Below are positions 1,161 to 64,000 of a stretch of 64,000 bases of DNA, piece after piece. This DNA is from Moniliella sp. 'wahieum' (Eukaryota). The DNA lies in the NCBI GenBank assembly GCA_003971905.1, contig RSEE01000013.1, forward strand, positions 310,001 through 374,000. Direction: 5' to 3'. The translations under genes were made by a program, and so were the position numbers. Numbering within the stretch: the first letter of the stretch is position 1; every line of letters starts with the position of its first letter. The notes beneath the pieces were generated by a model that was not told the origin of the DNA, did no database searches, and saw only the letters and a program-made list of their open reading frames with translations.

Positions 1161-1568
1161 TGTCATGGGGGGAGTCCTGTCGGAGGAGGGACCCACCCCT
1201 GTAGTTTAGGGATACAAACCCTTTTGGACGGCGGCGGCCAATCGGAGCTACGTACGTTAGGTCCTGCTTCAGATCCTGGTTAAACGTTAAACGTTGAACC
1301 GAACGGGTGTAGAGGAACTTGGGAGCGACCCTCTAGTTCGGGTGGCTGCCTGCGTGCAAAGGCGCAACTCAGGCCTATGTAGAGCCCGCTGTGATATGCG
1401 AAATCAGACGGAGTCCTAATGAAGAGCAAGCGCCACTGAGAATAAATGCGGCTTTTGCAGAGTGGTCGACGTAACTCCTAAAATCGTGAGAGTGGTACAA
1501 GGTGGAAGGGCGAGAGAGGAGTGGAAAGAGAGGAATGGAAAGAGAGGAATGGGGGTTGCTTATGTACA
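1161..1568 (-). mobile_element. LTR remnant (related to 47939-48450 and 56163-57010)
   Basis: Reverse complement ends CCCCATGACA and shares blocks with 48060-48450 (GCCTTTGCACGCAGGCAGCCACCC, GATCTGAAGCAGGACCTAACGTACGTA, CTTGCTCTTC.TTAGGACTC). The far boundary is uncertain and no TSD was found. Confidence 0.7.
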
Positions 1569-2544
1569 GAAGGAACCGGGCTTCAAAACTGCGTCGCTTC
1601 GGGACATGTATATAAACAGAATGTGGGGAACTTTCAAGAGAGGTAAAGACCAATACGCTTCCTGTGCTCTCCAAGGCACTGACGCTGCGCCATCGGGCGC
1701 AGCAGATAATAACGGGTTCTGCCAAGCATGGGTGCGACGAGCACAAAGAGTGGTACGGTGAGGGTCCATGCCACGCTGGAGTGCCGCGGATGATATCCGC
1801 ACAGCATGAATAAGGGGTCCGCTGGCTCTCTCTCACTGGTCTAACGATACTGACGCGTTTTTTAGATGAGATGTCTATACGACTTGCAGGGCTCACTGCC
1901 CCGGAGATAACCGGAGGAGCGCGCAGTAATACTATCCTCCCTTTGGCAACACCGCCATCCGCACTCATCCTACCACCCATAATGCAGCGCGTGTCGCACC
2001 GCCGGGCACCGCCCTGGCCGAAGCGAATGGCAGTCTTCGTTTCGAGGTGGATTTGGACCCAACACTTTTGGCTTCCTTCTTTTTTCCCCTTTGTCGACCA
2101 GACAGATTGCCCGCAAAAGGGAGGTGAAAAATGCACGGGAATAAGTAGTAGTGTCAAAAAATATGATATTTTGCACAAGAACACAACCTGCAGATACGCA
2201 TGCCCGCTATACATTCACGCTCTTGTTGAGCCTCCGGCAAATAATGGTAGAGAGATATAACCCTTATGTATAGATTCACGATGCACAGCAAAGGGTGAAT
2301 AGGTGAAGGGTAAAGAAGAAAGAAAAAAGCTGGAATAAGAGAGTATACCGGGAAGCTCAGGGGGTAACCAAAATATTGGGCCTTCCGTCGGTAGCAAGGT
2401 AGGGGGCATCAAGCCGCGAGAAGGGGGAGGTGGGGGGGAAGAGGCCATCAAGGCAGCAAAACTACAAATAAGTGTCAAGGTAAAGGTCTTGACCAGAAAT
2501 GAAGCGAAAGGCACAGGCAGCGCTCTCGACCGGCGAGAAGCAGA

Positions 2545-3771
2545 TTACTGCGTATTAGCGTGGGCGTTTTGAGCCATGCGGTCAAAAACGGAATAGATAT
2601 TCTTGACCCGGTTCGCGTTGAACTTGGCCTCGGAGGCGGAGACTGAGGATGCGCTGGCGACCGAAAGGCGGGATGCTTGGACGGCGGCATGAGAAACGGA
2701 TGCCAAGGAGGCTTGCACCGACTCTTTGGACACAGAGACGCGCGAGGCGCTAGCTTTGCTGGCCTCGCTGGCAGAAAGTACAGAATGCATCGAGTGAACA
2801 GAGACGATCGACTTGGCACGCGAGACGGAGAGACGACTGGCACGCAAGACGGAAGCAACCGAGGCTGACGAGGCTCGTGCGGCGGCGGCCGAAGCAGAAG
2901 CAGCAGCGGCTGAGCGGGAGGAAGCGAGACTGGCCTCATGCGCGCTCTTCTGTGCTGCCAGACTCTTGTTGGGCAGGGTGGGGCCACATGGGCTGGTGTA
3001 CCATCAGTGAACGACCAGATAGGGTGGATGATGCCAACAGAGTGAGGAGCCAGTTGCCCAAACAGGTCATACGTCAGGTCAATGTCGCACTGTTTTTCTC
3101 GCGTGTGTCAGCATCATCTGAGGATTGGTGTATATAGCAGCAGAAGAGACACATTCGCTCTACTGGCAGAGAGGGAGGCTGAGGAGGAAGAAGGAAACTC
3201 ACAACATTCTGACACGTCGACGTTGAGGGGTCGGGGGGAAGGTGTCCAAAAGCTGTGCGGTAGAGGTGGTGCCGTCAGGGGCGGGTGATACGAATTTCTT
3301 TGTGGCACAGCTCGCTTGGGCCCAGCCCTTTGGCCGCAAAGTAGTCCCAGCCTGGCTGGGAGAGGGCAATGGCAGGCTGCATGCAAGTGAGGGTGAGTAG
3401 TGTGAAGCGTGCCACCAGCAAGTGAAAGGCTAGCTGCCTGGCATAAACATCCAGCGGAAGAGGAGTGGGGGGGAGAGAGGACGCACGGTATTGTCGCTCA
3501 AATGAGTTCCACTGCAACTCCCGAGGCTCCCGCCTTCGGTGGCGGGATGGTACCACGTCGCCTCGCCCTGCCCGCGCCCAGCAAGACGCGGGGCAGTAGT
3601 GTTGAGCAAGTAGGCGTGGCGTTGGTTCGATGGCGCTGGCGCGCTGGGCGCAAGGGTGCGAGCAAGGTGGTGGTGAGGATGGGGCGCGGGGTGGGCAGCG
3701 TGGACGGTGGGGGCCACCGGGGCCCCCACGGCCAGGAGGGCGAGGAGGGAGACAAAGAGCGTGGAGCGCAT
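2545..3771 (-). CDS. Secreted RlpA-like/DPBB (loosenin/expansin-like) protein with Ser/Ala-rich C-terminal tail
   Basis: Signal peptide MRSTLFVSLLALLAVG; GEATWYHP..GSLGSC; PAIALS; LCHKEIRIT; DIDLTYDLFGQLAPHSVGIIHPIWSF. Introns at 3377-3486 and 3090-3202. Single-base indels are needed to join the frames. Confidence 0.75.
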
Positions 3772-4340
3772 GGCGGGTATCAAGAAGCAGAAGGAGTGTG
3801 GGGAGACGGTGGAGGAGGCGAGCGCACAAGGGGGCGCATGCAACGCACATCCGATGGGCAGAGGCAATATAACCGGCACCCGGCAGCTGCCAGCCAGCCA
3901 TGCTCGACCACGCGCCGCAGGGATTGGCTTCCATGCACCACACCAGTCTCCCCGCATTGGGGCAAGGCGCGAGTGGTAGAGGAGTGCGCATCCATACAGC
4001 GTGCCTGTGCGTGCCGTGCGGACGGCTGGGGCACACAAGAGTCCCCGCCTGCCCCGCCGCAGCGCGCAGGCGCCCATCCGCCCCCTGTGCTCGCATAGGC
4101 GCCGTTCTGGCAGGCCAAGCCTCAGGCCTGAGCCTCAGGCCTCCTCGTCTCGGCCAGCCACCCGGCCATTGCATCACTCCTACACGTCTCCCCCATGCCC
4201 TTCAACCCCCCCCGCCTGCTCGGCATGTACGTCATGTATCGCGGGGGTGGCCGCGCGAATCATCCAGACAGCTCGCCGCGCGCCACACCAGGCCACAGCG
4301 CAGATTCCGCAGCCATCAGGCACCGGCATGCTCATTCAGG

Positions 4341-4380
4341 TTGAGTTCAACGTTCAACGTTCAACTTGAACGTTCAACTC
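4341..4380. repeat. (GTTSAAC)n heptamer array
   Basis: gttcaacgttcaacgttcaacttgaacgttcaac. Confidence 0.9.
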
Positions 4381-5398
4381 AGGTCGCTGGGGAAAGACTG
4401 CACGTGATCACCACGTATGACGCGTGGCGCTCGAATCCCAACCTCAGGTTGCGGTCACCGGCCACCGGCCACCGGCCACAGGTCCTGATCAGCCTGACCG
4501 GCCTGACCCAAAGAGCATAGCTGCCGTATTCGTTGATCCATCGGTTGCGGCCGCCGAAGTCTCTCGTCGGCACGCGACTACACCGAGGAGAGCACAGCCG
4601 GACACAAATTTGAATGGCGCCTGCCACCCTCAGGGACTCACGGTCTTTTGAACCGGTCCCCAAACAGTACTACCCCTACCCTCAGGTTCCAACATAATAT
4701 ACATCAAGTGGATGCTCAAGAGGAGTGGTTAACGTGAGAGAAGCGTGCACGAGAGTCCGGGAGAGAAAAGGCCAAGTGGGGGGCAGGCCAGTTCAGCGCC
4801 TCCACCACCAAAGAATGACCTGAAGAAGGGCAAGTTAGTCGGCGCTGCAAGCTATAAAAAAGAGGCAAGGGACATACGAAGATCCAAATGACCAAAAAGA
4901 GGAAGATCATGTTAACCACCAGCCCTTTTGGCGGCGGGCCATCCGGGTCATCCTGCCAAAGTTGGTCGATAGGGACGCTGTGGCACCCGAAAAAAGGTCG
5001 GTCTACAGCCCGGGAAGGGACAAGAAGAAAGGGTTAGCAAACTGGTTTCCACCAAGTCGGTCGCGCTAAACAACAAGAAGACGCACCAAAGAGCTCAAGT
5101 CGGTGTTCCCCTCGCGCACTTCGGATCCAATACCGGACGTAATATCGCGCAAAAGCTTGACTCGCGCACTCAGGCCCTCGATTCGAGCATCGTTGCCCTC
5201 TTCCAAATCTTCGGCGGTGCGTTGTTGGGCATAAGAGCCCCAAGTTCCCCTGGCGGTAGAGGCCCCAGCATGGGGGAGGCAGAGGAGGAAGCAGCACCAT
5301 ACGGTGCAGACGAGGACGACGCGCCGGCATAGGGTGACGAAGTGGTCGCGGCATTACCATAGGGGGCGCCATAGCCCGCCCGGCCATACCCGTAATTG

Positions 5399-5453: not shown

Positions 5454-7619
5454 GGGCGGCGCCATACTCAGCAGCAAGCGCATCCTGCTCGGCTCCGGGC
5501 GGCAGCGCGGCGCGACATGGCCTGGCTCCTCACCGGACAAAAGGCAAAGGAGACCTCGAGAGCAAGGCCAAGGTGGTAGCGCGTGGAATGTGGAGCCCTC
5601 GCGGATTTCCGCATCGTCCCGCCTCCAGGCCAGGGTGGCTTAGGGCAAGGAGACGCTCTTCGTACGTTACCTAAGCCATACCCCAGACGTGGAGAGTAGC
5701 AATGATGCATGATAATCAATGACGTTTGGCGTGATGCGTGACGAGTGACGTGGCGCTAGCTCCAATGAAATTGCCCGATGACACCATCGCAACCACGGGC
5801 AACCAACCATCCAAGGCATTCGGCTTGGTTGAACTCAACGGGCTGCTTCTTCTCCTTGCCCCCATTCTCGATCGCCGCTGCCATGAGCTCGCTCTCGCCC
5901 CCTACATCGGTCCCCGACCTAGTGCAGGCGTACCTATCCCTCCCCGCTCCAAAACATTTGGGGTGACCACTGCCGAGGGCGAGGAAGGGAAGCGGACAAC
6001 GCCTACGTGGTGGGGGTGCACTCGTCACCATCGACCACGTCGTTACCCAGGCCCTCTGGATCTTCCACCCCCTCACCTCGATGGCGCACATTGAGGCGCT
6101 CCCCTCACCCGAAACTACGCCGGGGGAAGACTCGGACTTGGCCTCGGACAATCTGTATGAGTGGGGCGCGATCCAGCTTTCCCCCGAGGAGATGGGGCAG
6201 CTGGTGCCGTCGGTTGCGGTTGCACTGCTAAAGGCGTTTGTGGGGGGGTTCAACCCGCAAATGGGGTAAGGATGCCCCGCCCGCGTCCGAACAGGGCGTC
6301 CGAGCTCCCCATGCCCTGAACTTTGAAGGGTCCCAGGCTCACAGCCTGGCACCTTCGTCCGCGCGTTCTGGCAGCAGCACGCAGGCATCCCTGAAGACGT
6401 CATTCCGATCCAGTCGCAGCCGGCGGAGGAGGCCAATGAGGTCTTGGCTACCACGGCCTGGAGGCAATTTGTCCTGGCTATGCACGCAGCACCGCAGGGT
6501 GCGGGGCCAAGCACTCATGAGTACTGATCCATGGATCAGGGGACGAACGCGTTCTAATGCACTGGTATACCCTTCCGTTCCAGTATAAACTCTCCGTAAA
6601 TTGCATTGTTGGTCCGTGTTTTTGAGTGATGCCGCTTGCCGTCACCATTCTCAACTTCACTGAAGGCGACGGCAGTCAGAATTGACTTCTTCGTTAAGAC
6701 AGCAAAACCGAGCCGCTCTAATAACGGATTCCAGCCGGCTGTCCATTCTACGCGTCCATGCATCATGCATCATGGGCCGTTTGGAAATCACATTGACGTC
6801 GTGTGTTGGCCTCAATTGGTAGGTGGGCACTTCTTTAAGTTGGGTCCCCCTCCTGTCTCTTGTGGGTGCCGTTCCCTTCTGAGGTGTCTAGTGACTGCTT
6901 TGAGGCCCTCAGGTGTGACCTCTCACACCTCACATGCTCACATCAGTCTTTTTGCTTGTGCGAAAAATCGGGAGACTGTGTTCCGCAGTTGAGTACGTTG
7001 AGTATACTTGCATGGATCCTTCGCTCACAGCGCTCAGCGCTCGCGCTCATCGCCACTAACCCAGGGTCTAGCACCAGAGACCAGGCCATACCCCGCTTGT
7101 CGCGTTAAACGTTAAGAACACAACGGGATGATGCATGATGCACATGATGGCCGGAACTCTATCCCATTCAGAGGTATCCGGAAGCTCCAGAAGGATGGTC
7201 GATGGAGCTGCATTGGCAACCCTCCCACCAGTGACGTCACCTTGTCACTTGACCAATCCTTGAAGAAGAAGAGGCTTCGACACTTCTCCTTAATTGAGGC
7301 TTGGAAGTTGGTTGAGGCCGTTGAGGCCTGAGGGTACGTTGTGGCCTGAGGTGTAGCGAGATTCTGATTCACCCTCCGGCTAGGGAGCCGCAATGGATGC
7401 TGAAGCTCTGAAGGCGCGCTGAAGCGTATAAGACAGTGGCATAGGCGATCGATTGCGGGCGAGAGATACGCGTTGGTGGTAGGAAGCACACAGGACGAGA
7501 GCTACAGGAGAAGGCTACTAGCCCCTGACTTAATACGTGGCTACGCGCGCACCACCAGTCTTCAGAGCCAGCGGAGCCTCGGGCGAGTGAGACCGGAAGT
7601 TGCTCCACGACCAGTGAAG

Positions 7620-7852
7620 TCAGTCACTAGTCACTAGTCACTGTCGCAACACCTGACCCCGTCGGCCTGACCACGGGGACCAGCTAGGCCACGAATCCTC
7701 ACGCTCAGGAGCCTCACCTTCTCAGGCGTCTCTGTTTGGTGGTCCCAGCCCTGTCGCGCGATCAACGTTCAACGTTCAACGTTGAACGTTCATCGTTCAA
7801 CGCGATATGTTGGCCAGGTTGAGATCGCTTTGAACTTGAAGCTTGAAGCTTG
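7620..7852. repeat. Cluster of heptamer arrays: AGTCACT, GTTSAAC, CTTGAAG
   Basis: 7620-7643 tcagtcactagtcactagtcactg; 7762-7800 tcaacgttcaacgttcaacgttgaacgttc; 7831-7852 tgaacttgaagcttgaagcttg. Confidence 0.9.
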
Positions 7853-13675: not shown

Positions 13676-14877
13676 TCAGTGGCTGGGTCTATTTAAGCGA
13701 GTCGCGCCGTCGGGTGCAGACCGGTGATCACAATGAGCGGTGACGCGCTGACTCGGCTTTGTCGACCGCCCGGCGACGGACGCGTGGCCCTGCAGGTGAG
13801 TGGCGCCGTGCGGGGTGCGTGTGGGTCAGGCAAGGCAGGGCTGTGCGGGCGGTGCGCGCCCCTGCGGTGCCATGCATGACATGGGGCACATGTGCCAGGG
13901 GGCAGCTGCCAGGGGCGCGGGGACGCAGGCGCGGGGGCGGTGTGTCGTCTTGGAGGCGCATCGACGCTGGGCGAAGGCCAGCTGTCACATGTCAGATCGC
14001 ACGGCGCCAGTGCAGCCTGCCGCGCCGGGTACGCCCGGAAGCAAGATGACATCATTTTGGGTGTTCCGCCACGCCAAATTTCCGCAGCGGGCATATAAGT
14101 TTCAAACCATCTGCGCCTGCCGCCGTACGCCTGCGCCAGTGTCAGCCAGCTAGTGCCGGCCAGACCCAGCCGTCGCCCCGCGCGTCCTCTGTCCGCCAAC
14201 TCGGGAATTTGCTTTCTGCTTCGGCCGTCAGTCACTAGTCACTGACTTTATTGCGTTCATCAGCCAGCACTCTGCTGGCATCCTCTCTGCCCCCCACCCC
14301 GACCTCTCCTCTGTTGTCTCCATCGGCGTCTGACACCGGATGTTCGAAAGGGGGCTTCATAAGCTTCAAGCCCGAAGCTTTAACGCCGAGTACCGAGTGA
14401 TTCGCTGGTCCGCACAGCCTCGTTAAGCTTAGTTGCCATCATGTCGGCCGTGTCTATCCAACCACTGGGATGTGGCCAGACCTTGGTCGGAGCAAGGCTG
14501 GGTACAGCAGAGACGCCGTGTAGACCGCCTTCACTATGCGAAGCATGGACGGATGGGCGGTCCATCAGGGGGTCATTGCACATGACATTAGGGAAAGAGC
14601 ATGTGGCCTACGCCCTCCCCTCTATCCATATGCTGTGTGGCACGTTACTATTTCCTTCGACCATCCCTTCCCCCTCACGGCGAAAAGCTGCAGAATGCAA
14701 ACTACAACACACACGGCAATAACCGGCGAAGTGTGGATACATGGTGCAAAGTAAAGCGAGTAGTGCAGAGGCGTTGTTGACAATACGCCGAGATTTTTTT
14801 TTTCATCGACAAAAAGTCGCAGCATCCCAAAAATGAGTACGGTCAAGGAACAATAGGAGGGCAAAGTGAGTGGTCTC

Positions 14878-16605
14878 TTAGAAGCCCATACCGCCCATGC
14901 CACCCATCCCGCCCATCCCACCACCGGGCATACCTCCTGCAGGAGCCTTCTCCACAGGCGCGTCAACAATGCATGCCTCCGAAGTTGTCAGAAGCGACGC
15001 CACACCCGAAGCGTCTTGGAGCGAGGTGCGGATCACCTTGAGCGGGTCCAGAATGCCCGCAGCGACCATGTCCTTAAATTCAGACGTGGCAGCGTCGTAC
15101 CCATAGGCAAAGTCGTCCATATGCGACTCGAGGAGGCGGCCTACAACGACCGAGCCCTCCTCGCCCGCGTTCTCGACAATCTGCCGCGTCGGCCGGGTAA
15201 GAGCCGCCTTGATAATCGAGACACCCAACTGTTGGTCAAAGTTGGCCGTCTTGACCCCGGCCAGAGCCTGAGTGGCCTTAAGCAGAGCCGTACCACCGCC
15301 GGGAACAATGCCTTCTTCCACGGCAGCCCGAGTGGCGTTCAAGGCATCGTCGTATCGGTCCTTTTTCTCCCCGACTTCCACCTCAGATGAGCCACCGACC
15401 TTGATGACTGCCACGCCACCCGACAGCTTGGCCAGGCGCTCCTGCAACTTGGACTTGTCGTAGTCAGAACTCGCCTCCTGGATTGCAGAGCGAATCTGCT
15501 CGGCGCGGTGGGCCACGCATCCTTGTCTCCCGAGCCGTCAAGGAAGATGGTGTCCTCCTTGGAGACAGTAATCGAGCCAGCCTGGCCGAGCATGTCCGGC
15601 GTAGCGCGTTCCAGCTTGATGTCCAGCTCATCCGAGAAGACTGTACCACCGGTGAGGATGGCAAGGTCACCCAGGATCGACTTACGGTTGTCACCAAAGC
15701 CAGGGGCCTTGACGGCGCACACTTGCAGCTGCCCACGAAGCTTGTTGAGCACACGCCGCAAGCGCCTCCCCATCCACATCTTCTGCCACAATGAGCAAGG
15801 GACGGCGCAGCTGCGCCGACGCCTCGAGCGCAGGCATGATGTCCGCCAGCGCCGAAATCTTGTTCTCCGAGAAGAGGATCAAGGGCTTGTCAAGCTCCAC
15901 CTTTTGAGTCTTTACATCCGTGATAAAGTAAGGGGAGATGTAGCCGCGGTCAAAGCGCATGCCCTCAGTAATGTCGATCTCATCCTCCAGGGTGCGACCC
16001 TCCTTGACGGTAATCACACCTTCCTTGCCCACCTTCTCCATGGCTGCGGCAATTAGCTCGCCCACATGCTTGTCTCCATTGGCCGAGATTGTGGCCACCT
16101 GGGCAATCTCCTCAGCCGTAGTGACGGGCTTCTTGTTCTCTTCCAGGAACTTGATCACGGCGTCCACCGCAGCCTGCGTGCCACGCCGAAGGTCCATTGG
16201 GTTGCACCCAGCCGCAACATTCTTGACACCCTCGGCGTAGATCGCACGAGCCAAGACGGTGGGCGGCGGTGGGCCATCACCAGCGACCTCGTTGGTCTTG
16301 TTGGCCACATCCTGCACCAGCTTAGCGCCCAGGTTCTCAAATTTGTCCTTAAGCTCAATAGCCTTGGCAACGGTCACTCCATCTTTGGTAATCTTGGGCC
16401 CGCCGAACGCCTGCTCGATAATCACGTTGCGGCCCTTGGGGCCCATGGTGACACTGACCGCGTCGGCGAGAAGGTTGACACCCTTGAGCATCGCAGCGCG
16501 GCCGGGGTTGCTGAAAAGCACATCCTTGTGCTGGGCAATGGGCGACGTGCTGAACGCACGCACACCACGCAGAGGCACCTTGGCAGCAGTACGAAGGAGG
16601 GACAT
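14878..16605 (-). CDS. HSP60: Mitochondrial chaperonin Hsp60 (GroEL family)
   Basis: Mitochondrial presequence, [53 protein letters not shown]-terminal GGM repeats; split over three ORFs by indels. Confidence 0.97.
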
Positions 16606-17234
16606 GGCGACAGGCCTGTTGGAAGAAAAGCAGCGGAAGCTCTACTGTTCGTGCCGGTGGGAAGCAGCGGCGCTCGAAGATTATTACGAGCACCAAAAAC
16701 GCCCAGCAGCGGCAATTCCCAATACTGCCCCCGTGCGGGCCTCTCACCGAAGCGGAACGAATGTCTGGCTTGTGCATTGTGTGAGATGGGTATGTGCTGT
16801 GCAGATGGCCAGTGCGGGGGACCGGCAGTAACTAGCAGCTAGAACTCAGCCCTAAGGCCTAACCGGCCTAACCGCCACTGAGGCTGGAAAAGCGCAACCC
16901 AGGTTCTTCTCAGAACTAACACCGCGCGTCCAGGCCAGCAGCAGGTTGCTTGGCGCCAGCGACGGCACTCCCCTCGTCGACACTCTCCCTCCCTGCCTGG
17001 CTAATGAATAGTGGCTGGAACTGGTACGGGCACCGTACTGAGTGGCTGAGCTTCGCGCCTTGTGTCCCACCATGGTTGGCTGGCCGGGTCAAGCCAGTCA
17101 TGCTCACAGGTCACGATCAATTTCATAATTGGTGGAACTCCCCCGAGTCGTTCGGCGTGCTTCCTTTCGTTCCGTTCCACTTGGCCAAGTTCTGTTCCCT
17201 TCTACCATCTGCCCCACCAACTTCCCTAGCTACC
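16606..17234. promoter_or_regulatory. Putative bidirectional promoter of HSP60/HSP10
   Basis: Divergent start codons at 16605 and 17235. Confidence 0.6.
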
Positions 17235-42075: not shown

Positions 42076-42094
42076 ACGTAAGCGCGAAGATTAT

Positions 42095-46491: not shown

Positions 46492-46748
46492 CAAGGAGGA
46501 CCACCGGGCCTACGGCCCGATCAGCTGGGGCTTCGCCCCAGCTAACCTTAGCCACCGTTCCACGGTCGCCACCTTAGCCACCGTTCTCCCGGTCCACTGT
46601 TCCCCGCTGGAACCCTTCCACGCTGGAGAGGGCAAATAATATCACCGATTCGTGCTGGCTGCGGATGCCGTGGAACGTGGCACCGGTCGGCACGTGCCTA
46701 TGACGAAACAGATGGCACGGCGTTTCGTCCCTTAATATAATCTAGGGA
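46492..46748 (-). mobile_element. Putative complete non-autonomous mini-Helitron (257 bp)
   Basis: Minus strand reads A|TCCCTAGATTATATTAAG... and ends with the same two hairpins and CTTG|T; A/T target, no TSD. Confidence 0.68.
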
Positions 46749-48450: not shown

Positions 48451-49556
48451 GAATTAGAATTAGTGACTACTGAATCTCAATGGAGATGTATGCATACTGT
48501 ATGGTTCTTCACCGGTGAAGGCTCGGATGTTTACCATGTTCATCCGTATCTTCCGCCGGCACGCCCTCCCCCTGCCCAGATGCTAGCCCACTCCATCGTG
48601 CTCCCTCTCTTTCCTCGTCGTCGAGCACCTTGCGTTCTACCCTCGATCTTGACGGCACCAACAGACGGCATGCTCCCCGGTCGGCTTCCTACTCCCCACA
48701 GCTCACCCGCCTAGTATGCGCCCAGCATCGTCTCCCCCTTTTCCACCGCCTCTCTGGGATGGAGGGAATCGTTCACCCTTGAGCGTCGTTTCAGCGCCTC
48801 TTCCTGGCTAGGGCTTGGCGGAGGGTATGGTCTGCAGGAGAGCAAGCTTGGACCCGAATCTGCTAGGCCGCTCAACATGCCCTCACTACTACATGTAAAA
48901 GGCGAAGGCGCTAGCCAACCCGCCTCTTTGTGGAGTCGGGCCATCGACCTCTTTGCCGAGGCGGCTCGGTCACAGCGCGCGTCCGCGCCCTGGGCTCCGG
49001 AAGCGAACGGCTCTGCTACCGACCGTGCCCCACGCGGACGCGGACGCACTCCGTCCAATAGTTTCCGCATCCGCTGTCCCAGTCAGCGAGGAGAACGCTT
49101 CTTAATGGGCCAACTGGATATGCACTGATGATTCGTTCTTTTCCACTCCCCCTTTTTTCCCCTCACTCTGCACCCATCTCTCCACCAACATGACCCAGCT
49201 TTTGTCCCCTTCTCTTTTGTTCCGACCCCATCTTGGTTCGGGCTTTGTTCGTTCCCCGGGCCCGCCTCACCTCTATCCTACGCCGGGCTCCGACCCCTTA
49301 CACTTATATTAACCCACAACGAAATAATGTACTCTCCTGATTTCGTTTGTGAGATGCGAAATTGAACCGCTCAGCGGCTTAGCGCCATGGCTACCTGCCC
49401 GGTGCCGTGGCTTCGAAATGCACCCTTTCACAATTGCACCCCTCACCAGCATATCTATGGTTCGGCGCATTCCGCGCTTCGTTGCACGATCGGCAGCTAG
49501 CTAGGTAGAAGCGATTAGTACTACATGGGATGTAGACAGAGCCAGTGGGGTAAGCC

Positions 49557-51151: not shown

Positions 51152-54065
51152 TCAGTGCTGGGCTGAGGCCGCCGAGGTTTTTGAGTGTGGGATGCGGGCG
51201 AAAAGCACATCCAATAAGCCGCGGTGATGTGCTTCTATTACAACCGCAGTAGCCCAACACAACATCAAAAAGGAGACCACTGAGTGTGTTGGGCCCCCAT
51301 CAGTAGCTGACCTACGGTGGGGACCAGTACTGATGCCTTGAAATGAAGGAAAGTATATATACAACACCATTCCAGCTACCACAACAGGCCAAAACAATCG
51401 AACGTGATCAACAAGTAGTAGACAAAAGAGAGGGAGGGGGGTATATCCAACAGAGAGAAGTGTTTTCGAACCAATCAATGAACATCGTACCGATTGCCCG
51501 GAGCCATTTTTGCCCGTCTCCCACTTGAGAGCGCTACTAAGGGCGGGAGGCATAGGCCCGTGGCGCACGGAGGGGGGAAGCTGCATGCTTTGCGGTCGTG
51601 GAAGCGCAGTCAACAAATCGGCGATGGATGGGCGTACCGGTTCTCGATCCTTGGGCCGTCCCTCCCGCAAGAGGGGGGACGAGCCCAAAGATGATCCTTC
51701 CCGTTCCAATGGACGTGGTTCTAATGGACGTGGTTCCAATGGACGCGGTTCCAATGAACGCGGCTCCAATGGGCGCTCCATCACTGCCAATGCCATTCGT
51801 GTGGCGGGTTCCTGAGCCTGAGCCTGTGTGGGTGGGTGAAGGGCCACCCGTCCCAACAGCATCACCAACTCCACCGCCCGGCTCCAGGTCGGGTTCACCT
51901 CGATGGCCGCCTGGAGGGTGGCCACGCGGCCGCGTCCAATGGCGGAGCTAGAGAGGTGGGAGGAACTGAGCTGGACGCGGGCGGCCAGAACGTGCATGCA
52001 TACCCACGCCAGACTTTCGGTGGGAGCAAGCCCCCCCTGGGCCCCAGCTTCGGCCAAGGTGGCTACCTGTTCTCCCGTGTAGGCAAGCGAGGCGGGCAAG
52101 CCAACGTACCACGTATCGACGTCCGCCCGGGTGCGCAGACGGGTAGCGTGGACCAAACAAGCGAGTGCTTGGACGACCGAATCGGTGCTTTGGCTCGTTG
52201 GGAGCGGCACCCCGGACTGCACGCCACCATAAAGCGATGCTAGTCCTTCCACCACCGCAATCGCTAGACTGATACGCGGTCCGCAGGCCGGGTCCAACGT
52301 GCGCCAAGCTAGCGCTGCATCGAGGGTTGCTTGGCGTGCCTGGCCCAGCTGAAGGGAACCCAGTGCCAACAACGCATACGCCATGGCGACCCCCCAACGC
52401 CTTCCTTGTCGCTTTCATCGGAAGTGGGGTCAGTATCTGGATCGGATGCATGCAGGGCCAAGAGCGCACGAGCGGCTTGGATGTGCGCGCTGGCTGCGTC
52501 CCCCTTTGGTGCCACCAGGGCATAGAGCGCATGGAGCAGCGCAGGCAAGGCAACGAATGCGTACCCCGCCTCGCCCATGGCCTGAGCCGGGGCCGGGGCT
52601 GGGGCCAGGGGGGGGAGGCACACGCTCAAAGGGAATCCCACTTGACGGAAGAGGGCGAGATAATCTGCTTGCACATTATGCGGCGGGAGGCAAGCGAGAG
52701 CCGTGGCTTCGATTGGGGACCGGGATGCCCCCTGTCTTGGTACCTGGGCAGGGTATGGGGGAAAGGGAGAGTTCCTGGGCAGGAACGGGGAGCGTGGAAG
52801 GCGGGAGGAAAGATGGAGGGTTAGTGGGAATAGCCAACGGAGCAGCCATAGACAAGTCGGGGCTGGCAGCCCAACGTCCCCTTCGCGGCCCACTCACATC
52901 CCGCCCCGGGCCCAGTTCCCATCCGGACGAGAGAGAGGGGTTGGCAGCTTGCGGTGAAGGCGGCAAGGTGCTGACCCACTGGCTGGGATCGAATCCACAC
53001 GCAGTAGTCGAAGTCGATCTCGATGGATCAGAATGCGTAGGCGAGAGGCCGGCCGATTCAGCAAGACCGCCAGGATGAATGGAAGCAGGGCCCGCCGCAG
53101 GGTGGCCAATGACCGAGGGAGGCGTCCCAGGGTCAGACAACGCCTGATAGTCCGGTCGAAGAGGTACCGAGGGACCTGCCGCAGCCTCCGCAAGGATGGC
53201 CAGGGCCGGGGCGTCGCTGCCGGAGCGGACAAGCGGAGCCACATCACCCACGGACATGCTCCGTGGGGGCGCTGGACGGTCTTCATCCACGTCCTCATCA
53301 GGGTCAGGCAACCATTCCTGGTTGGGCGCAGGCGCAGATAGAACCCCTGATTCATCACTGTGAACCAAAGTTAGTCAGCACCAATGCTAGCGAAGCAAGG
53401 GAAAGGCATCGCGTGGATTGAGTACTGAGCCTCAGCACCGTAGCGTGACATGTCGTAGCGTGACATGTGACGTATATATGGAGGGGAGGGGGGGGGCACG
53501 CACAAATATTGACACACTTTGCCATTGTATAGGCAGTTGCTGCACGGTAGCCGCCGGTCGCATCGCCGCTTCGCCTTGTGGCAAGCAGTACAGGAGCGCT
53601 GGGAACGTTTGCGTTTTCCACGTTGGGGAACGTACCCCTGTCCACCCGCCGGGTGGCGCAAAGGCAGGGGGGAGTGGGAGCAGGGACGGGAGGCGCATGC
53701 AGAACGGAAGGAGGCGAGGCAGAGGGCACACGCCAGCTCTCGGATCGAGGCGCATGCATCGGGCGGAGGGGGGGGAGGGAGGCATGGGACCAAGACGAGT
53801 GGGGATGTGGCGGTCGCGGTGGCGGCGGGAGGAGGGGGGGAGTGTGGGTGGGCCCTCGGACGAGCTGGTCAATGGGCGGCAAGGGGGTGTCACCGGGGGA
53901 CCACGCAGCGCGAGCATCGTGGATGGAGGGGAGGGTGGGCGGGCGGTCGTCGCGCATGCTGGCCACAGGGAGGGAGGGGGCGGGACGAGATGGGCAGGAT
54001 GGTGGGAGGGAGCAAACCGGCGCAGAGTCAGGACGGAACAGCGAGGGTTCAACGTCCAGGACCAT
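51152..54065 (-). CDS. Zn(II)2Cys6 binuclear-cluster transcription factor
   Basis: RKRSQRSCTACHKAKRRCDRRLPCSNCLYNGKVCQY followed by an intron (~53358-53503); 15-bp PLEPR repeat at ~51707-51780; both ends approximate. Confidence 0.8.
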
Positions 54066-54447: not shown

Positions 54448-55517
54448 AGCTTGAAGCTTGAAGCTTGACGCTTGAAGCTTGACGCTTGAAGCTTGACGAT
54501 AGCCCCACGTTTGCGCCCTCGGCTGGGTGCATCGTCAGCTGACACACTGCCCCCCACTGCCCCTCTGCTGGGCTGGGGCTCCGCCCCCGTGGTGACGCGG
54601 TGACGCCGCCGTCCTGTGGTCTGGGGCGAAATATCAAATGCACAGGCGCCGTGCCCGCTGCGGCAGAAGTGAGCACAACCCTGCGGGGAGTAAGACATGC
54701 GGAGCTCCGCACGTGGGGACAAGCACAGTGGCTCAGGCGCACAACGCTCCTGCTGAGCGCTCAGGGCACCAGGGCCCAGGCTGACGCCCCAGCCCCAGCG
54801 CTGGGCGCCCGGGTGCACAGGGGCCGGGGGCCGGGGGCGCTGAGGTGATTTTGCAGATACCACGGGGCATGGCGCAGGTGTCGTTGCGGACGGGGCGGAC
54901 CGGAGGAAGGCAGCAGCTGGGAAAGGGTTTTCCGATCACTGGTCGCATCCTCCCGCATCATGCATCGGACCGCCGCTTCAGCCGCTGGGTGCACAACTTT
55001 CGTACCGCTGCAGCGGCGGGGGTATGGGGTGAGAGGCGCGTGAAGCTTGAAGCTTGAAGCTTGAAGCTTGAAGTGTGTGCCACACCACATGTGACATGCG
55101 ACATGTGACATGGGGAGGGCAGGGACAAAATCAAGACCACAAGTAGCGTATCCTTGTATTTCTAAGCGCGTGCTTTTGTAGAAGCTGAGCGCCCGTAAGC
55201 AGCAGGCTCTAATGATTAATGATTAATGACGCTGTGAAAAGCGCGCAAGCTGATGTAGGCTGAAGTCTGCTTTCAAGCTTGAAGCTAGCTATCTTGATGG
55301 CTGACTAGCTTGCGGACTGGAGCGCTGCGGCGCCTCGGGCTAGTTTGGACCGTATAACGGGTACCGGGTTCTGATGTCTGTACGGAAGCGCTGAAGCTGA
55401 AGCGAGAAACTGAAGCATGCTTAATTTGGAGTCTTCTTATTTTTTTGTCACATCATGCATCATGCACCAGGCCATCGACCCACCATGCACCGCATCATGC
55501 ATCATGCATCATGCATC
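54448..55517. repeat. Dense cluster of heptamer arrays CTTGAAG/CTTGACG, TGTGACA, AATGATT, CATCATG
   Basis: Arrays at 54448-54496, 55041-55073, 55086-55112, 55210-55229, 55451-55466 and 55492-55517. Confidence 0.92.
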
Positions 55518-56162
55518 GTAATGCATAGCTGCACATACGGTTCCAACGCACAATAAGAGCCCACCTACATACCCTCCGGTGTTCGTTCCTTTGGCATCCC
55601 GCAGGCTGGTACTGGTGCTTAACCCCCTGCTCCAGCATCTCCTGCCCGCATGCCAGCTCACCCGCATGCCACGTACACCCTCCCAGACGGCAGAGAGGAT
55701 GGTTGTGGACAAACCATGTGTCCTGAACTTACATGGAGAAAAAGAGCGCACAGTGGCCGGTGGTATTATGGCAAAGAGCTGTGATCTCACCCTTGAGGAG
55801 ATTGGCTCTCAGATCTCAGACACTGCCGTTTTTGGTGTGGAGCCCCCCAGTGCCTCTCCTGCAACATAATGGGGGAGTTGCACGATCTGTGTTGGTACTA
55901 TGTTCCCTCCCGCCATACCGCATCTGGCTGACCTCGCCGTTGCACTTCCAACGAAGAAAGACGAGAAGCGCGGAGAGCTGCGGAGAGGCGCTGTTCAGCT
56001 GAACACACACTGGACTTTTTTTTGCTGAACATATATATACTGGACTTCTTTTTGCTGTCTACTCTTTTACTACTCTACTACTGGAGAAGCAGGTGGCCGC
56101 CATGTTTTCTACGAAGAGTGGTGCAGAAGTGCATCACAGGAGATCCTCAGGCCGGCCTCAAC

Positions 56163-57164: not shown

Positions 57165-60100
57165 TCAAATGTGGCTGCGTAATTGCGCTCCTAGGTGTGT
57201 GTCAGTCCACTCGGCCACGACGGCCTGGACGGTGGCCTGCGCCTGTGCCCACGCGAGCTTGTTTGCGCACCCACCTCCATCTTCATCCCCATCATCAAGC
57301 CCGGCTAACAGGCGCGCCCACCAGGCCATCACCCCGCTCACCACCTCCAGCCGCCCTGCCTCCAGCGTCCGCACACAAAAGCCCACCAGATGGCGCACGT
57401 CCCCTTCCCGGGGCCCCACACGTGCAAAAGCGGTAACCCAAGCCGCCAATCGCGCCCGCAAAGCCGGCACCTCACGCGCACCCTGCAATCCCGGCGCCCC
57501 GCTCGGACGGGCGATCTGGGGGACAGAAAGGCGAGCTTGCATACGCTCCGCCAACGCCATCCGCTCCTCGCCCCGTGTCAGCTCTCGTTCCACCGCACCA
57601 GCCCCGCCGTTCCGCTCACCCGGGTGGTTGAGCGCTTGGCGGGTCTGTTGCTGCGCACCCGCCTCCTCCAGCAGCTCCCGCTGCACCCCCACCGGCAGGC
57701 TGCGGTACACCTCCACGTCCATCCCCAGCTGCTGCACCACCGCATCAGGCACCGCGCTGGGCTCAGCCACCCACAGTGCCATTTGGTCCAGGACGGGCTG
57801 GTCGATCGGTCGCCTGCCAAAGGGGCGTGGGCTGCGTGGGCTGCGTGGACTGCGTGGGCTGCGCGGGCTGTGGCTGATACGCGCCGCTCGAGGCGTCCTT
57901 GGTCCTCCCCTCCCCCGCGCAGGCCGTGGGCGAGCAGGTGACTGTCGTTCTGGCCGCGGTGGGGAACTCAGGCCCATATCCCGCAACACCTCGGCCCGGA
58001 TGGGCGACGGGAGCTCATACAGCGTAGTCAAATCGAGTGTCTCGCGGGTCAGCACTGTCGGTGCTGCTTGCTCTGTGTCCTCGTCCCTTGGAAGGGCGAC
58101 GGTGACGAGGCGCTCCTCTTCTTCGGCCGCAAGAGCGCGCGCCAAGGCTTCTTGTTTCCGCGCTCGTGCCACTTGCTTCTGCACCGCCAAGGGCAACACT
58201 GCCAGTACCCCTTCGTCCACCTGCGTCGGAATCACGTACTGTGTCCCGGGCCCGAGGGACAGCGAGCCATCGCCCGACAGGTCCGCCTCCATCGGCAGCG
58301 GCGGAGGCGGGGCATGAGCCAATGGCGGAGTTGGGCAATCAGGCCCAGGAAGCACGGAACCGCCACAATCGGGGGGGTCGGGCGAGGAACGGGTGACATT
58401 GATATCTGGGGTATCCTTGGCCCCGAGTGGAGGCGTGGTTGGGACCGGGGCCGAGGGGGGAGCGTTTTGTTTTTGCGTCTCTCCAAGCGGGCGGGCGAGG
58501 AAGGGCAAACGTCGTTGTCCGCGTGGAAGAGGGGCGGGTTGAGGATGGTCCGGGGTGAGTTGTTGAACACTGATTCCGATGCCTCGGAGTTCCCGTGGGT
58601 CCAGTTGAAGCGCAAGAAGCAACCCCCACGCCGAGCGCTTGATGGCCTGCGCGTCGCGTGTAGCAACGTTGAGCGAAGCCGACTTGTGGTAGGTATCGCA
58701 CACACCATGGCCCAGAAACTTGGGTGCCTCCACAGGTGCCTCGGCTGCTCGTACCATCACGTTGAGCAGCACCTTTCGTCCCACATACCGCGCCCGCTCC
58801 ATCCGGCCCGCCACTTCGGCAGACAGAGACGCAACAAATGTTTCGGCCTCCGTCTCATTGGCAAACCGAATGGCATAGTTGACCGCGGCACCAATCGAGT
58901 GGCGTACCCGCTCGCCTTCGAGACGGTCCCGCTCCTTGCCATTCATCTTGGCCCAGTAGCTGCCCCCCTTTTCGGGCCCAAACAAGGCACGAAAACTGGC
59001 CTCCGTTTGTTCAGTGACCAAGCGCCCAATGACCGATGTACCAAACCGGGACCGACAAGCTTCCCTTGCACTCCACCCAACACCATGGAGGTCGTCAATC
59101 TCCAATTCTGACAGAAAACCGGCCACCGCCTCAGTTTGGAGATGAAACGATCCGCCGGGTTTGGCTCGCCGGGTAGCGAGGCGTGCCAGCAACACATTGG
59201 ATCCTACCCCAATGCTGGCCTCGGTACGTGTGGCGGTACGCACGGCATCCCTCAATGTCTCCGCCAAGCAATGCTCCTCAGTCCACTCAGGATGAGTACA
59301 AGTGTAATGGGAATACGGCACAAGTAATGCGTGAGCTTCCTTTGCCTTGTTTTGATTCTGTTGGCTGGGTGCACCCTTGCCCGGGTCCGGAGGAATGCCG
59401 GCGTCCGTGTCAATGTCGGTGTCGGCGTCTTTGTTCTTGCCCTTTCCTTTTCCCCTGGCGCCACTCAGGCTCTCCTGCCGCAACCGGGCCAAGAGAAGAC
59501 TCACATCCATCAACGCCTCGTCCACACTCACCGCTTCCACGGCATCCGCATGGGCAAGGAGGAAGGTATAAAAGCAAATGCTCGTCGCATTGTACGCATC
59601 AAAGTCGTAGGGAATGCACTCGATTCCGGGACAGCGTGCACGAGCTTGCCCCAAACTCATCCCGTTGCGCACTCCGTATTTGCGCGCCATGTAGTTGCAC
59701 GAAGCAATCTCGGACGTGCTCCGCTCCTTGCCCGGCGGGCCCTGCGCATGACACACCACCACCGCCTTGTCCCGCAACGCGGGCTTGTCCCGGACCCCAA
59801 CGCTCACAAAAAAACAATCAAACTACACCCCGCACCAGGTCAGCTCACCTCGCCCAGCATACCGCCACAACCGGCTCATAGGCCGAGGGGAAAGAGAGGG
59901 GGGGACGTACATCAATGTGCATGATCACCCTCCTTATGCCAGGTGGTAAGTCTTGGCTGCCCATGGACCGGCCTGCCGCACGACACGCCTCGGCTACCAT
60001 ATCTTTCATTTCGCTTTTCCACGTGCTCAGGTGGTGCAGTCGGCTCTTGGCAAAGAACCCCTGGAGAAAGCCACCACTGGCCGTGGTATTGCGCTCGCGC

Positions 60101-61519
60101 CAGCTGGGCGAAGCCATGAGACGTGCCGCATGGGCGTTGGGTGAAGCGCCAGCGTACCCCATAAGCTCGACAGGTGGGGGGGGCGCTGTTCCTCTCCAGA
60201 CAGTGGGGACGAAGGGGAAGGAGGCGAGGGAGTAGGCTGGGTCCTAGTCGGCTCTGGTGGAACAGGAGGCTCCCTTTGTTCTGGGAGCGGGGAGGAAGAG
60301 GAGGAAGAGAAAGAAGTACGATCACGCTGCGTCTTCTCCTCCTGCGGGACGGGGACAGGCGACAACGCGGCATAACCCGGGGGCGTGGAAGCAATTGGCA
60401 CGATCCTCTCCGTCTGAACTGCATGCGAAGGCGTACTGGATAATGGGAGCGTCCGGGGCTGGGGTAACGCGTTGGATGTAGGTGTACTGGACCGTGGTGG
60501 CAACACTGTAGAAGGTAGGGTGGGGATGAGGGAGGCAAAAAGGAGATGTTCCCTTGGCCAGTCGACCGGCCCCATGGTGTGGGAGCGGCAACGGGAAGAG
60601 GGGGTGGAAGGAAGGTTCGGGAAGACGTGCCTAACAATGTAGATCCTTCCCCTATGGATGAGGTGTGTGGATCAAACGAGGCCGGCGCAAGGACGGTCGA
60701 ACATCCAGCAGAGGTGTGGGAAGATAGGGAGCGGTTGTACTGGCTTTGCAGTTGTCCAGCCCGCTTGTGGCGCAAGCGTGCAAGCCATTGAGAGCCCTGC
60801 TGTGACGACTGGGACGATTGTGTCTGTTGAACAAGAGCAGGTGTCGGGAAGGAAGCAATAGGTCCCAGGCGGTAGTTACGCCAATCTTGCCGCACCCCAC
60901 GGGCAACCGAGTCAAGGATCCAGTGCTCCGTCACGACACGGTAGTCGCGCAGCTCGACTCGTTTCTTGGGAGTCAGGTTGGAGGCGACAATGTGTGTGAT
61001 CTGGCTTTTGCGGTCCAGAAAAGTGTAAAAGGTGCCGCCATGAAGGACAATAAGCCGGCGTAGCTCGAGGAAAGGGGCCGCCTGGGTCAGGCCGTCGACA
61101 TAGATGTGGCAAGCGTTGAAAACGGGTGGGTGCGCGGGGTGAAGTCTGTCCTGGGTGGCGTTACCCGACTCGTTCCCATCCCCGTACTCTTGTTCCTGCT
61201 GGACCAGCGCGGCCTGCTGGACTTGGAGCTTGGCGCGCTTGTGCTGCACAAAGGCGCGTACGTCGCCAAAGTCAATGGGCGCATACGCGGGGGCAGCGAG
61301 GTATTCTGGAGCCGGGGGGTCGGCGGGTGGGCGCGGGTGCTTGCCGAGGGCCGTGTGGGAGGGGGGATCTGGGGTTGAGGTTGAGGCTGAGGTTGAGGTT
61401 GAGGTTGAGGTTGAGGTTGAGATTGAGATTGAGGCTGAGGCTGAGGTTGAGATTGAGGTTGAGGTTGAGGTTGTGGCTGCGGGTATCTTTTTCGCTGCAG
61501 GCGAGGTCGGGACGGTCAT
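57165..61519 (-). CDS. REV1: DNA repair protein Rev1 (BRCT + Y-family deoxycytidyl transferase)
   Basis: BRCT IYVDGLT...LRRLIVLHGG...ITHIVASNLTPKK...WILDSV; FFAKSRLHHLSTWK; VIMHID/FDCFF (intron 59823-59910); SEIASCNYMARKYGVRNGM; AVSVDEA; KFLGHGVCD. Confidence 0.95.
61374..61473. repeat. (GGTTGA/GATTGA/GGCTGA)n hexamer repeat encoding poly-Ser/Thr in Rev1
   Basis: About 16 units seen directly. Confidence 0.9.
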
Positions 61520-61864
61520 GGCTGTGGGGCCATCGCGGTGCTTCCGGGCGTCGCTGCCACCAGGGGCTGGTTGGTGGTGGCGACGCGACGCGCACTCGTG
61601 TGCTGTACTGTAAACTTTCAGACAGGGGTGTTTTAATAAGCCGCGTTCAGCCGCTCAGCCTGAACGTTCAGTTGAACGTTGAACACGCTCAGCCCATGAC
61701 CGACGGCGAGAGCGGGTTGCGATCGTTGGTCGAGGCCATCCATCCCCATCTGCCCTGCTCGCTCGCGCCCCACCGCCTCTTTGTCAGCTGAGCAGTGGCT
61801 GCGCACACTCGTGCTTGCCGTGCCTCGCTTCCCCCCCGGTCGCCCCGCGCCCCTCGCCGCTGCC

Positions 61865-62336
61865 ATGGATCCGTACTACCGCGCCCGCAACCAGCAGCAC
61901 TTTGCGTCCCAGCTCGACTTTGTGTCGGCGCTGGCCAACCCGGCCTACATTGCCCACCTCGCCCAGCAGGGCTTTCTCCGCGACACCCGCTTCGTTCGCT
62001 ACCTCGCCCACCTGGACACCACGTGGCACACCCGGAGTATGCGCGTTTCGTGCGCTACCCCTACGCTCTTGTTCCTCTCTGCGCTCCAGAACGCAGAGTT
62101 CCGCGCCGCCGCTGAGCGCGAGGGCTGGGCCGCCATGGCCCGCAGCCAGATGCTGGGCCACTGGGCCGTATGGTTCGTTCCTGTCTCCCGCCTTGCGCCC
62201 ACCGCCCCTGCTTGCTGACCCTAGCCGCCCCTCCCTGTTGCCCCTGCACAGGCGCATGCCGGCGGAAGAAGACCAGCCCGAGGGGTCGTCGGCGCCGCCG
62301 CCTGCCCTCGTCCCACCGGCGCCTAGTGAACACTGA
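61865..62336 (+). CDS. SOH1: Mediator subunit Med31/Soh1
   Basis: FASQLDFVSALANPAYIAHLAQQGFLRDTRFVRYLAHL..WHTPEYARFVRYPYALLFL..LQNAEFR; probable intron near 62172-62251. Confidence 0.9.
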
Positions 62337-64000
62337 GCTGAGTCTCACGTGCTGGGCGCGAATGCTGATGCATGATGAGCCTCATCGCTGCGCGCAGCCC
62401 CAAGGGCCTGGCGTCGGGCGCTATCGGGCCCGAGCGTTGTGGTAGATGGGATGCCGGTGTAATAGGATGGTCACCAACAATCGATAACCGGTAACCCGAA
62501 CGGCGCTCCGAGCCCAAACCCGGTCTTCCCCCGCCTTCCGCGCTCTTGCACATGTGACATGTGATGCCAGCACGTGGGGGGCGCGCCAAGCAGCTGCGAC
62601 TCAGTCGTCGTGCTCACTAACACGCCGTCCGTCGCAACAGCGTCCGGCGTGCGCCAGCACGGGTGACGCTCACCCATGTCGGCCGAGTAGGGAATATCGG
62701 CCGGGGCTCAACTCACTAATCAATCACGTCGAAGCCAAGACCGAAGCTGGGCGCGGGAAGGTTAGCCCAGCATTGGCCTGTCTTCGACTCTGCGTCTCGG
62801 CCGCTCAGGCCAGCAGCCGTCGCATGCTTGCTGACTCGCGTGTTCCTTGCCTCCGTCGGGCCCCCGGCCGCACTAGTCACTTACCCTAAGGCCTCCCTCT
62901 CTGGCCCCTCCCGCCCCCTCCCCCTGCCCCTCCCCCGCCTCTCCACCCTTCAGCCTCGCCACTGCCACGCTGCCGGTGGCTCTCCCCGCGGTGGCCGAGA
63001 CATGGAAGCCGCCTGTCCATGCTGTCAGAAGCTCAGCGCTGAGTCGGAGCAGCATGCTGCGGGTGCCTCGGACCTGAGGTGCCTCTCTTGCCCAATTCTT
63101 TGCCCTGTCGTACATGTCGCCGTCACTGGCGCCACGCCGCAGAGCATCTACCAGCTAGCAGGATGAATTCATATTGGCCTTGAATATTGCATAGCTGGAA
63201 ACTTGATCGACTTGATCTTGGGCCCACTCTCGTGGGTCCTCGTCACCGGCCACTCTCGCTTCTCACAATCTTCGGCTATTTCTCTCTGGGCGCCTAGCGG
63301 AGGGGCTGGAGTGCAACTGCCCCTCTCCCTCCCCCACCCTTGTTCCTGTCCATGGCTCGGGGAAAAAGCATGATGCATGAGGCGTGGCCACTTGGTACTA
63401 TCACACTGCGCCCTCGGCGCCGGTCACATACACACTTTGCGCCCAGGCAGAGCAAAGGTCCTGCAACTGTCACCGTTGTCACCAATCCTCGTTGAGGACA
63501 GTCTCCCGCGGCTCAGTCTCGGTCTGTGCCATAGTCATGGTTCCTTGAAGGGTAATGCAGGTTTTGAACTACCTTTTCGTGCGCCAGGTCTTTCCTCCCG
63601 CAAAAGTCTCGCTCCTCTTGGCACAACCACACCACCATTGCCATTTCCACTCCTCTGCAGGTCATGGAGAATCTTTGGCCTTTGGCAGGTACGCCTCTCC
63701 TCCCTCCAGGGAGCACGACGGGTGCAGAGGGTGAGGCGAGCTGTGTCCTCTCTCCTTGCGAGAGTAACGCTGCTTTCGCCACACCCTCCTTTCATCTTGG
63801 GCTCAACGGTGAAGACCCTCTTGGCTCGCTGCACACTCCCGTCGCACCCAGACCCCTTTCTTTCATGGCCTTAGCGTCACCTGTTCCATCGACAGAGCTC
63901 TGGGACCCCAACAATGCCTTGGCCACGGGCGGGTTTCCGTCTCTTTCTCCTCTCTTTCAGCAGGACGAGCCACTTCAGGAGGTCGGAGGCATCATGCCCT

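Follow-up and report, generated by a model that had tools for sequence, protein, structure and literature searches.

What process could fill the DNA between genes with short tandem arrays that differ in sequence and share one symmetry? This question is raised by a 64,000 bp stretch of a Moniliella sp. 'wahieum' contig (RSEE01000013.1, positions 310,001–374,000; assembly GCA_003971905.1), which is called here the window and is numbered from its first base. A sequence-only reading of it had described arrays of 7 bp units, each an odd palindrome centred on TNA, and had postulated a dedicated cause for them. Here we report that the feature is real and highly non-random, that its basic unit is a one-sided scar of 12 bases rather than a palindrome, and that scars and arrays are probably the excision footprints of a cut-and-paste element.

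Tandem arrays of TNA-centred heptamers

The reported unit was found within a few bases of all 23 array starts that had been given and of a further start at position 1280. The weakest of them is position 7030, a 15-base run with a single full GCTCAGC. As had been suspected, TNA-centred palindromic heptamers are enriched in tandem: all 31 adjacent equal-arm pairs in the window have this core, none has ANT, CNG or GNC, and adjacent TNA pairs were absent from each of 30 local Markov shuffles. Adjacent odd-palindrome pairs of periods 9 and 11 were not found in the window. Exact period-7 runs of at least 14 bases number 38 (6 for period 8 and 8 for period 9); 24 of these 38 obey the grammar, a TNA followed by a 4-base palindrome, and among them 10 different spacers are seen; the remaining 14 break it. 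Single TNA-centred heptamers show a modest enrichment (245 vs. 159). Flips of the centre base within arrays, also described earlier, were seen at 7762–7802, 4345–4379 and 34382–34402.

The one-sided scar

The view that the palindromic heptamer is the basic unit did not hold, since in most isolated cases just one side is palindromic and the other, free side looks random. The basic unit is instead a 12-base scar, xy-TNA-y'x'-xy-TNA-zw or its mirror image, in which an ordinary site xy-TNA-zw has gained seven bases, five of them direct copies and two inverted. This one-sided form is found in 28 of the 36 isolated flank-matched cases, and exact tandem arrays represent the particular case of a target that was palindromic to begin with. 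The two inverted bases of these 28 scars make simple slippage insufficient and support the dedicated cause postulated earlier.

Pairs of TSA triplets seven bases apart with a palindromic spacer number 53 for the same centre (2.1 expected) and 12 for a flipped one (1.6 expected). Among 46 isolated cases of TNA-palindrome-TNA, the spacer mirrors only the left flank in 14, only the right in 14, both in 8 and neither in 10, where chance predicts 0.6, 0.5, 0.05 and 5.0, respectively. The free flank behaves as random (14 joints with no matching base and 12 with one), in 66 of 76 cases the filler agrees with the outer flank, and the spacers are of 13 kinds. Among 3-base cores, a strong scar signal is given only by TNA with a 2-base arm (74 vs. 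0.1 expected for TCA/TGA and 10 vs. 0.0 for TAA/TTA); the 12 counts for ATG/CAT may be shifted registers of CATCATG arrays. At 43 of the 48 sites the centre base is C or G.

The spectrum of gains in non-coding DNA consists of 7 bases (55 vs. 0.27 expected), 8 bases (4 vs. 0.03), 9 bases (7 vs. 0) and 13 bases (3 vs. 0). In the 9-base class, two full NN-TNA-NN copies flank a 2-base mirror filler; xy equals zw at three of its seven sites, where the fillers are able to anneal (p = 0.007). A 6-base filler, found at three sites, carries the centre base in inverted form. These rarer classes (9-base, 8-base and 6-base filler) imply that the duplication is 7 bases long and that the mirror axis lies exactly at its edge. 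The geometry is even in 84 cases (41 + 43), and the odd geometry of Ac/hAT footprints was counted four times (1.2 expected).

Clean duplications occur only on palindromic targets. Such targets account for 8 of the 36 isolated scars, more than chance would give (p = 0.0014), and 15 of the 48 sites have more than one joint. The 31 clean TNA-centred 7-base duplications listed are all palindromic targets or shifted registers, which speaks against a plain 7-bp staggered cut with fill-in. Among the causes named in the sequence-only reading, the transposon footprint and the hairpin are the ones favoured here, and neither the plain stagger nor a dimeric factor found support. Scars with one mismatch are also numerous (74 vs. 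5.3 expected), so the process must be old and long-running.

The sites are listed below; no strand is assigned to them.

4120–4142, two full target copies around a 6-base mirror filler, centre flipped
4345–4379, GTTCAAC array and 6-base mirror filler
4452–4479, period-7 array whose later copies are without the T of TCA, which points to slippage
4493–4508, 9-base class: full target, 2-base mirror filler, full target
6757–7149, cluster: scars at 6763, 7106 and 7129, 9-base class at 6990 and 7136, short run at 7028
7311–7333, 9-base class on a non-palindromic target, then a one-sided scar
7760–7852, GTTSAAC array (centre flips, first copy non-palindromic) and CTTGAAG array
13983–14243, one-sided scar (13985) and AGTCACT twice (14230), upstream of polyubiquitin
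16851–16873, one-sided scar and 9-base class, between divergent Hsp60 and Hsp10-like genes
26072–27118, seven clustered sites upstream of the GATA factor gene, among them a period-9 array (26605–26655)
34382–35101, cluster: 6-base filler site, one-sided scars, CGTAACG three times, TGTCACA twice, GGTCACC six times
44177–44484, AGTGACT array and one-sided scar, within a decayed element
54448–55820, cluster with arrays of CTTGAAG (one has a 14-base sub-period), AATGATT, CATCATG and TCTCAGA, and a decayed TGTGACA array
61659–63382, scars at 61673, 62366, 62485, 62555, 63033, 63204 (9-base class) and 63371

Placement relative to genes

Pfam assignments in the window comprise REV1, a GATA factor, a TBC protein, polyubiquitin, Hsp60, a PPIP5K-type kinase, PTH2 and a HODM-like protein. 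The best named match of REV1 is from Tilletiaria anomala (44% identity, 86% of the query), followed by other Ustilaginomycotina, and to judge from sequence the host is a basidiomycete of this group. The Hsp60 and REV1 domains are broken across separate frames (14878–16608 and 57165–61520), which suggests uncorrected single-base assembly errors.

The near-absence from exons was borne out: none of the 84 scar 12-mers lies inside the Pfam-supported gene spans (14.7 kb), and all 84 are in non-coding DNA, where 0.17 are expected. With coding spans drawn by hand, after the sequence was seen, one of 48 sites falls inside. Because a 7-base insertion breaks the reading frame, this absence does not tell targeting from selection. 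The density is about 1.5 sites per kb of non-coding DNA; the gaps between convergent genes (2.0 kb, 73 TNA sites) hold no sites, where about 2 are expected. At 53439–53475, in a probable intron, there is a 15-base tandem pair with a TGA-CATG-TGA end that mirrors neither flank; possibly it is the intron array mentioned in the sequence-only reading.

Filled and empty sites in paralogous repeats

Two dispersed repeats are present more than once in the window, with an identity of 76–80% (family one at 1100–1520, 41888–41960 and 48037–48560; family two at 7366–7640 and 43914–44141). Copies differ at three positions, where a TNA site that is single in one copy is present three times in the other:

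1279–1299, no strand, GTTAAAC twice and GTTGAAC, repeat copy B1
48339–48345, minus strand, single (empty) site, paralogous copy B2
7622–7642, no strand, AGTCACT three times, repeat copy A1
43913–43919, minus strand, single (empty) site, copy A2
7399–7424, no strand, three copies of a non-palindromic target with mirror fillers, repeat copy A1
44104–44110, minus strand, single (empty) non-palindromic site, copy A2

The filled site at 1279 is about 14 bases longer than its counterpart at 48339, which is palindromic or one base off. The site at 7622 exceeds that at 43913 by 14 bases, and the single copy there is one base off palindromic. The site at 7399 is 18 bases longer than that at 44104, and its fillers mirror the flanks except for two unexplained bases. 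The direction of change at these pairs appears to be gain, not loss. Both repeat families have a copy inside a decayed element at 41656–46772, of which they are probably relics. Two palindromic stretches at 48488–48520 in copy B2 are missing from the copy at 41888.

A proposed transposon excision model

What is demonstrated is that the scar classes exist, exceed chance, are absent from coding DNA and show a net gain relative to paralogous copies. We regard it as likely that the scars are the footprints of a cut-and-paste element with a 7-base target duplication, formed by hairpins at the flank ends, off-tip opening and end joining. The element would insert at NN-TNA-NN and duplicate all seven bases. 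At excision, as the scar anatomy suggests, each flank would be sealed into a hairpin exactly at its last base by a RAG-like cleavage. A host nuclease would then open the hairpin mostly two bases past the tip, giving the 4-base self-complementary overhangs zw-w'z' and y'x'-xy, and end joining would retain one overhang and remove the other, leaving xy-TNA-y'x'-xy-TNA-zw or its mirror with a net gain of 7. More rarely, more would be retained, giving gains of 8 and 9 bases, or the hairpin would be opened 6 bases away, so that the centre base is copied inverted.

The resulting scar would itself hold a palindromic target with cohesive overhangs, and the next cycle would add an exact 7-base copy; slippage also contributes, lengthening some arrays afterwards. 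When the target is palindromic, the two overhangs are one identical self-complementary 4-mer; this would account for the surplus of palindromic targets and of sites with several joints. The filler lengths are dominated by those that a +2 opening would give (55 in the 7-base class, 7 in the 9-base class and 3 longer fillers), and even P-nucleotide palindromes are present at the flank ends, as in RAG/Transib-type footprints. RAG hairpins have an even geometry, with mirror bases and no central unpaired base. Opening mainly at +2 is described for Artemis (PMC2175297), and flanking-DNA hairpins are formed by hAT, Transib, MULE and RAG (PMC5499845).

Several points weigh against this model. The window yielded no element flanked by a TNA-centred duplication of 7 bases, and the flank repeat of its lone EnSpm-like element is 2 bases long; for CMCT elements, duplications of 2–5 bases are reported (PMC12730594). 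About 1.5 sites per kb of non-coding DNA demand very heavy transposition traffic. No joint keeps both overhangs, and the whole removal of one of them is without explanation. The arrays at 4452, with copies that lack the T, and at 54448, with a sub-period of 14 bases, are more easily obtained by slippage. Of the three empty sites, two were already palindromic or within one base of it, and so they do not separate the model from slippage. Finally, viral contigs contain single-spacer heptamer arrays, some of them flipped, so that flips alone need no transposase.

Alternative explanations

The excision model has to be weighed against a host or domesticated nuclease acting without a cargo element, which would make a 7-base staggered break at TNA and whose snap-back or hairpin repair would write the mirror bases. 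The same scar anatomy is expected from it, and the high scar density and the lack of an agent in the window agree with it as well. It requires, however, a fill-in duplication plus hairpins at both new ends, which insertion followed by excision gives directly, and its expected by-product, clean 7-base TNA duplications of non-palindromic sequence, is absent from the window. We therefore consider this origin unlikely.

Replication slippage, microhomology-mediated duplication or template switching on chance palindromic heptamers seems to us improbable as the general cause. It has on its side the two arrays and the two palindromic or nearly palindromic empty sites just named, the similar single-spacer arrays of viral contigs, and the finding that tandem duplications are common across life (bioRxiv 10.64898/2026.02.28.708716). 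A pure direct copy, however, accounts for the added bases of some arrays only: the 5-base direct copy with two inverted bases in 28 of the 36 isolated flank-matched scars is something direct duplication cannot produce. In addition, the other cores gave counts of 0, 3 and 0, the third empty site (44104) is non-palindromic, and the main text of that preprint nowhere uses the word 'inverted'.

Selection of binding sites for a dimeric factor reading TSA-N4-TSA, one of the causes proposed earlier, would fit the clustering of sites upstream of genes, the 0 sites in 2.0 kb of convergent gaps (about 2 expected) and the C or G centre at 43 of 48 sites. It gives no account of spacers that are copied from the local flank in mirror form and in 13 kinds, of the 8-, 9- and 13-base classes, or of arrays that are present in one paralogous copy and missing from the other. 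As the origin of the sites it is thus very improbable, and some scars may have been co-opted later as factor sites.

In footprints of the Tc1/mariner or PIF/Harbinger type, the filler is derived from the element ends. An element of this kind, with a 3-base TNA duplication and a filler made of two bases from each end, would produce the TNA-filler-TNA format, and 10 isolated cases do mirror neither flank (5 expected). We find it scarcely tenable, because 66 of 76 fillers agree with the outer flank, spacers of 13 kinds are seen, and full 7-base copies are present at 7 sites. A sequencing or assembly artefact can practically be dismissed: the assembly looks error-prone (Hsp60 and REV1 domains split over frames), but an artefact would not spare coding DNA (0 of 84), would not decay (74 one-mismatch copies) and would hardly be expected to recur in unrelated metagenome contigs.

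Two hAT geometries were also tried and rejected. An 8-base hAT target (alternating hexamer plus reverse complement) gave no non-palindromic case among the long odd palindromes, and the odd geometry of hAT7 gave 4 cases (1.2 expected) against 84 even ones.

Search for the agent

Returning to the excision model, we found no transposase family in 37 open reading frames and 142 selected stop-to-stop frames of at least 70 amino acids (of about 190) of the window, or in six read-through frames of 44735–45902, and the KDZ domain was absent from the window frames scanned. A scan of the window for inverted ends with a flanking duplication yielded arrays or chance pairs only, and a second inverted-end scan gave at least 9502 pairs, at chance level. 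The following relics were recognised:

41656–46772, no strand, decayed inverted-repeat element of 5.1 kb with ends CACGG..CCGTG (provisional) and a 2-base flank repeat
45505–45831, plus strand, relic frame H-x4-H..FGP..E that resembles the end of the EnSpm/CMCT catalytic domain, a lead only

The arms of the decayed element (42153–42312 and 46496–46664) match at 74%, and a 23-base tandem repeat lies at 42362–42498. At its ends, which show the CAC..GTG of EnSpm/CACTA elements, 10 of the 10 first bases match, the best of 1260 left starts, and short end matches are common by chance. EnSpm/CACTA elements have duplications of 2–3 bases; a 2-base flank repeat is expected by chance in 1 of 16 cases. 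One base further out, both flanks read NN-TNA-NN and differ from each other. A rival boundary at 41882–46696, with an 8/9 flank match containing TGA, was set aside (score 20 vs. 35.5). The ends of CNEST of Cryptococcus likewise begin with CACGG (PMC12810828).

Transposases of EnSpm/CACTA elements carry C(2)C and H(3-4)H motifs. The motif of the relic frame (H-x4-H with a downstream E) was spotted by eye; CMCT transposases have an H-x4-H-type motif with a downstream E (PMC12730594). In the Atlas, the nearest named cluster of this frame is DUF4218 (score 0.91, 149 features; family on 10% of members), and a second relic piece scored 0.77. A word search with the relic frame revealed no homologues, HMMER gave two matches only, both unrelated repeat proteins, and a single-sequence model was uninformative (predicted local distance difference test 56, best fold Z 5.3). 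The 2-base flank repeat makes the decayed element a poor fit to 7-base scars, and it is probably not the agent. The CMCT clade (EnSpm, Transib, Plavaka) fits no better, having duplications of 2–5 bases where the scars need seven.

Scars in metagenome and viral contigs

A metagenome scan for the CATSATG triple gave at least 120 loci. Of these, 58 loci of at least 2 kb were kept and one duplicate was dropped; the matched array was masked and its spacer excluded. The contigs were chosen for carrying an array, the two-strand counts are not independent, and the hosts were typed by gene families only, an exact look-up of five metagenome proteins having given no match. All metagenome counts are given among the matches listed. 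In 38 contigs with low cover by long open reading frames (263 kb), 15 TNA scars were found (1.6 expected), in 9 contigs; the control cores in the same contigs gave 6 for ANT (1.6), 6 for CNG (2.1) and 3 for GNC (2.0). In 19 gene-dense contigs (199 kb) there were none (1.6 expected). For comparison, the window has 72 (0.22 expected).

Compared with the control cores, TNA is in modest excess (15 vs. 6, p = 0.04). At 80 loci of at least 1 kb, ANT is equally enriched (11 vs. 2.5, with TNA at 19 vs. 4.3). We take the metagenome signal as a lead that the scar process extends beyond one genome.

The nine contigs with a one-sided TNA scar, with other spacers, are L134, L147, L156, L130, L104, L113, L135, L139 and L165, and some of them carry fungal-type genes (fungalysin propeptide, phosphatidylserine decarboxylase, RhoGAP). 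The six ANT-core scar-like 12-mers (1.6 expected) are in low-cover contigs L105, L130, L139, L155, L156 and L165 and may be background or a sister process.

Scans of viral contigs gave 87 loci, with one dominant spacer each in L001–L072 and at most one other spacer in L073–L087. GTTSAAC arrays with a single spacer are found in GC-rich viral contigs (L005–L007, L009–L011, L014, L016, L017, L019, L020, L022, L024 and L025), with centre flips in L007, L009 and L020. L027–L072 include many small contigs of about 38% GC with CTTGAAG-type heptamer arrays and mixed spacers after TGA.

Implications and comparison with known systems

It can be proposed, tentatively and with considerable doubt, that an unrecognised transposase lineage or its domesticated derivative joins RAG-type flank hairpins to a 7-base NN-TNA-NN target, leaving about 1.5 scars per kb of non-coding DNA here and about one twentieth of this density in other basidiomycetes, and that self-reinforcing cycles turn the scars into tandem repeats of arbitrary sequence. 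If so, fungal promoter sequence would have a source that has gone unrecognised, and past transposition a legible record; the process would provide a non-slippage route to tandem repeats and would supply TGA/TCA words upstream of genes. Transposon footprints are as a rule scarce and irregular, whereas one stereotyped scar recurs here about 1.5 times per kb of non-coding DNA. Its anatomy alone yields the length and motif of the target, the geometry of the hairpin and the position at which it opens, with no need for the enzyme itself, and the 12-base scar could serve as a simple screen of any fungal genome for past element activity.

No description of this scar class was found in the literature, most subscription papers being outside the search. 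The scars work like RAG-type excision footprints, and membership of any named family is not established. They share with RAG/Transib-type systems the flanking-DNA hairpin (PMC5499845) and its opening mainly at +2 (PMC2175297), but differ in the 7-base TNA-centred duplication and in joints that are far more uniform and iterate into arrays.

With Ac/Ds of the hAT superfamily they share target duplication, palindromic filler and joint microhomology (PMC5873905, PMC12730594), and the 7 sites with two full 7-base copies agree with the 7- or 8-base duplications of hAT and hAT7; hAT7 makes 7-base duplications in rusts (PMC12730594). In Ac/Ds, however, the palindrome is centred on the complement of the element-adjacent base (PMC5873905), in contrast to the even geometry seen here, and hAT7 fails on geometry if it cuts like Ac. 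The other fungal elements known for 7-base duplications, Kyakuja (KDZ) of Agaricomycotina, resemble the present case in this respect and in their basidiomycete hosts (PMC12730594). For the MULE Muta1, the flank hairpin measures 43 + 43 nt, as would be seen if no base is lost, but more than 90% of Muta1 excisions in yeast are precise and footprints are rare (PMC5499845). CNEST and CNIRT6 of Cryptococcus differ in having 2- and 3-base duplications, and no footprints are described for them in the passages searched (PMC12810828). In Ustilago maydis, many small intergenic 10-bp repeats have been suggested to be transposon footprints (cited in PMC4081816). They differ from the present scars in stated length and are likened to them by description only, and the scar described here may bear on their origin.

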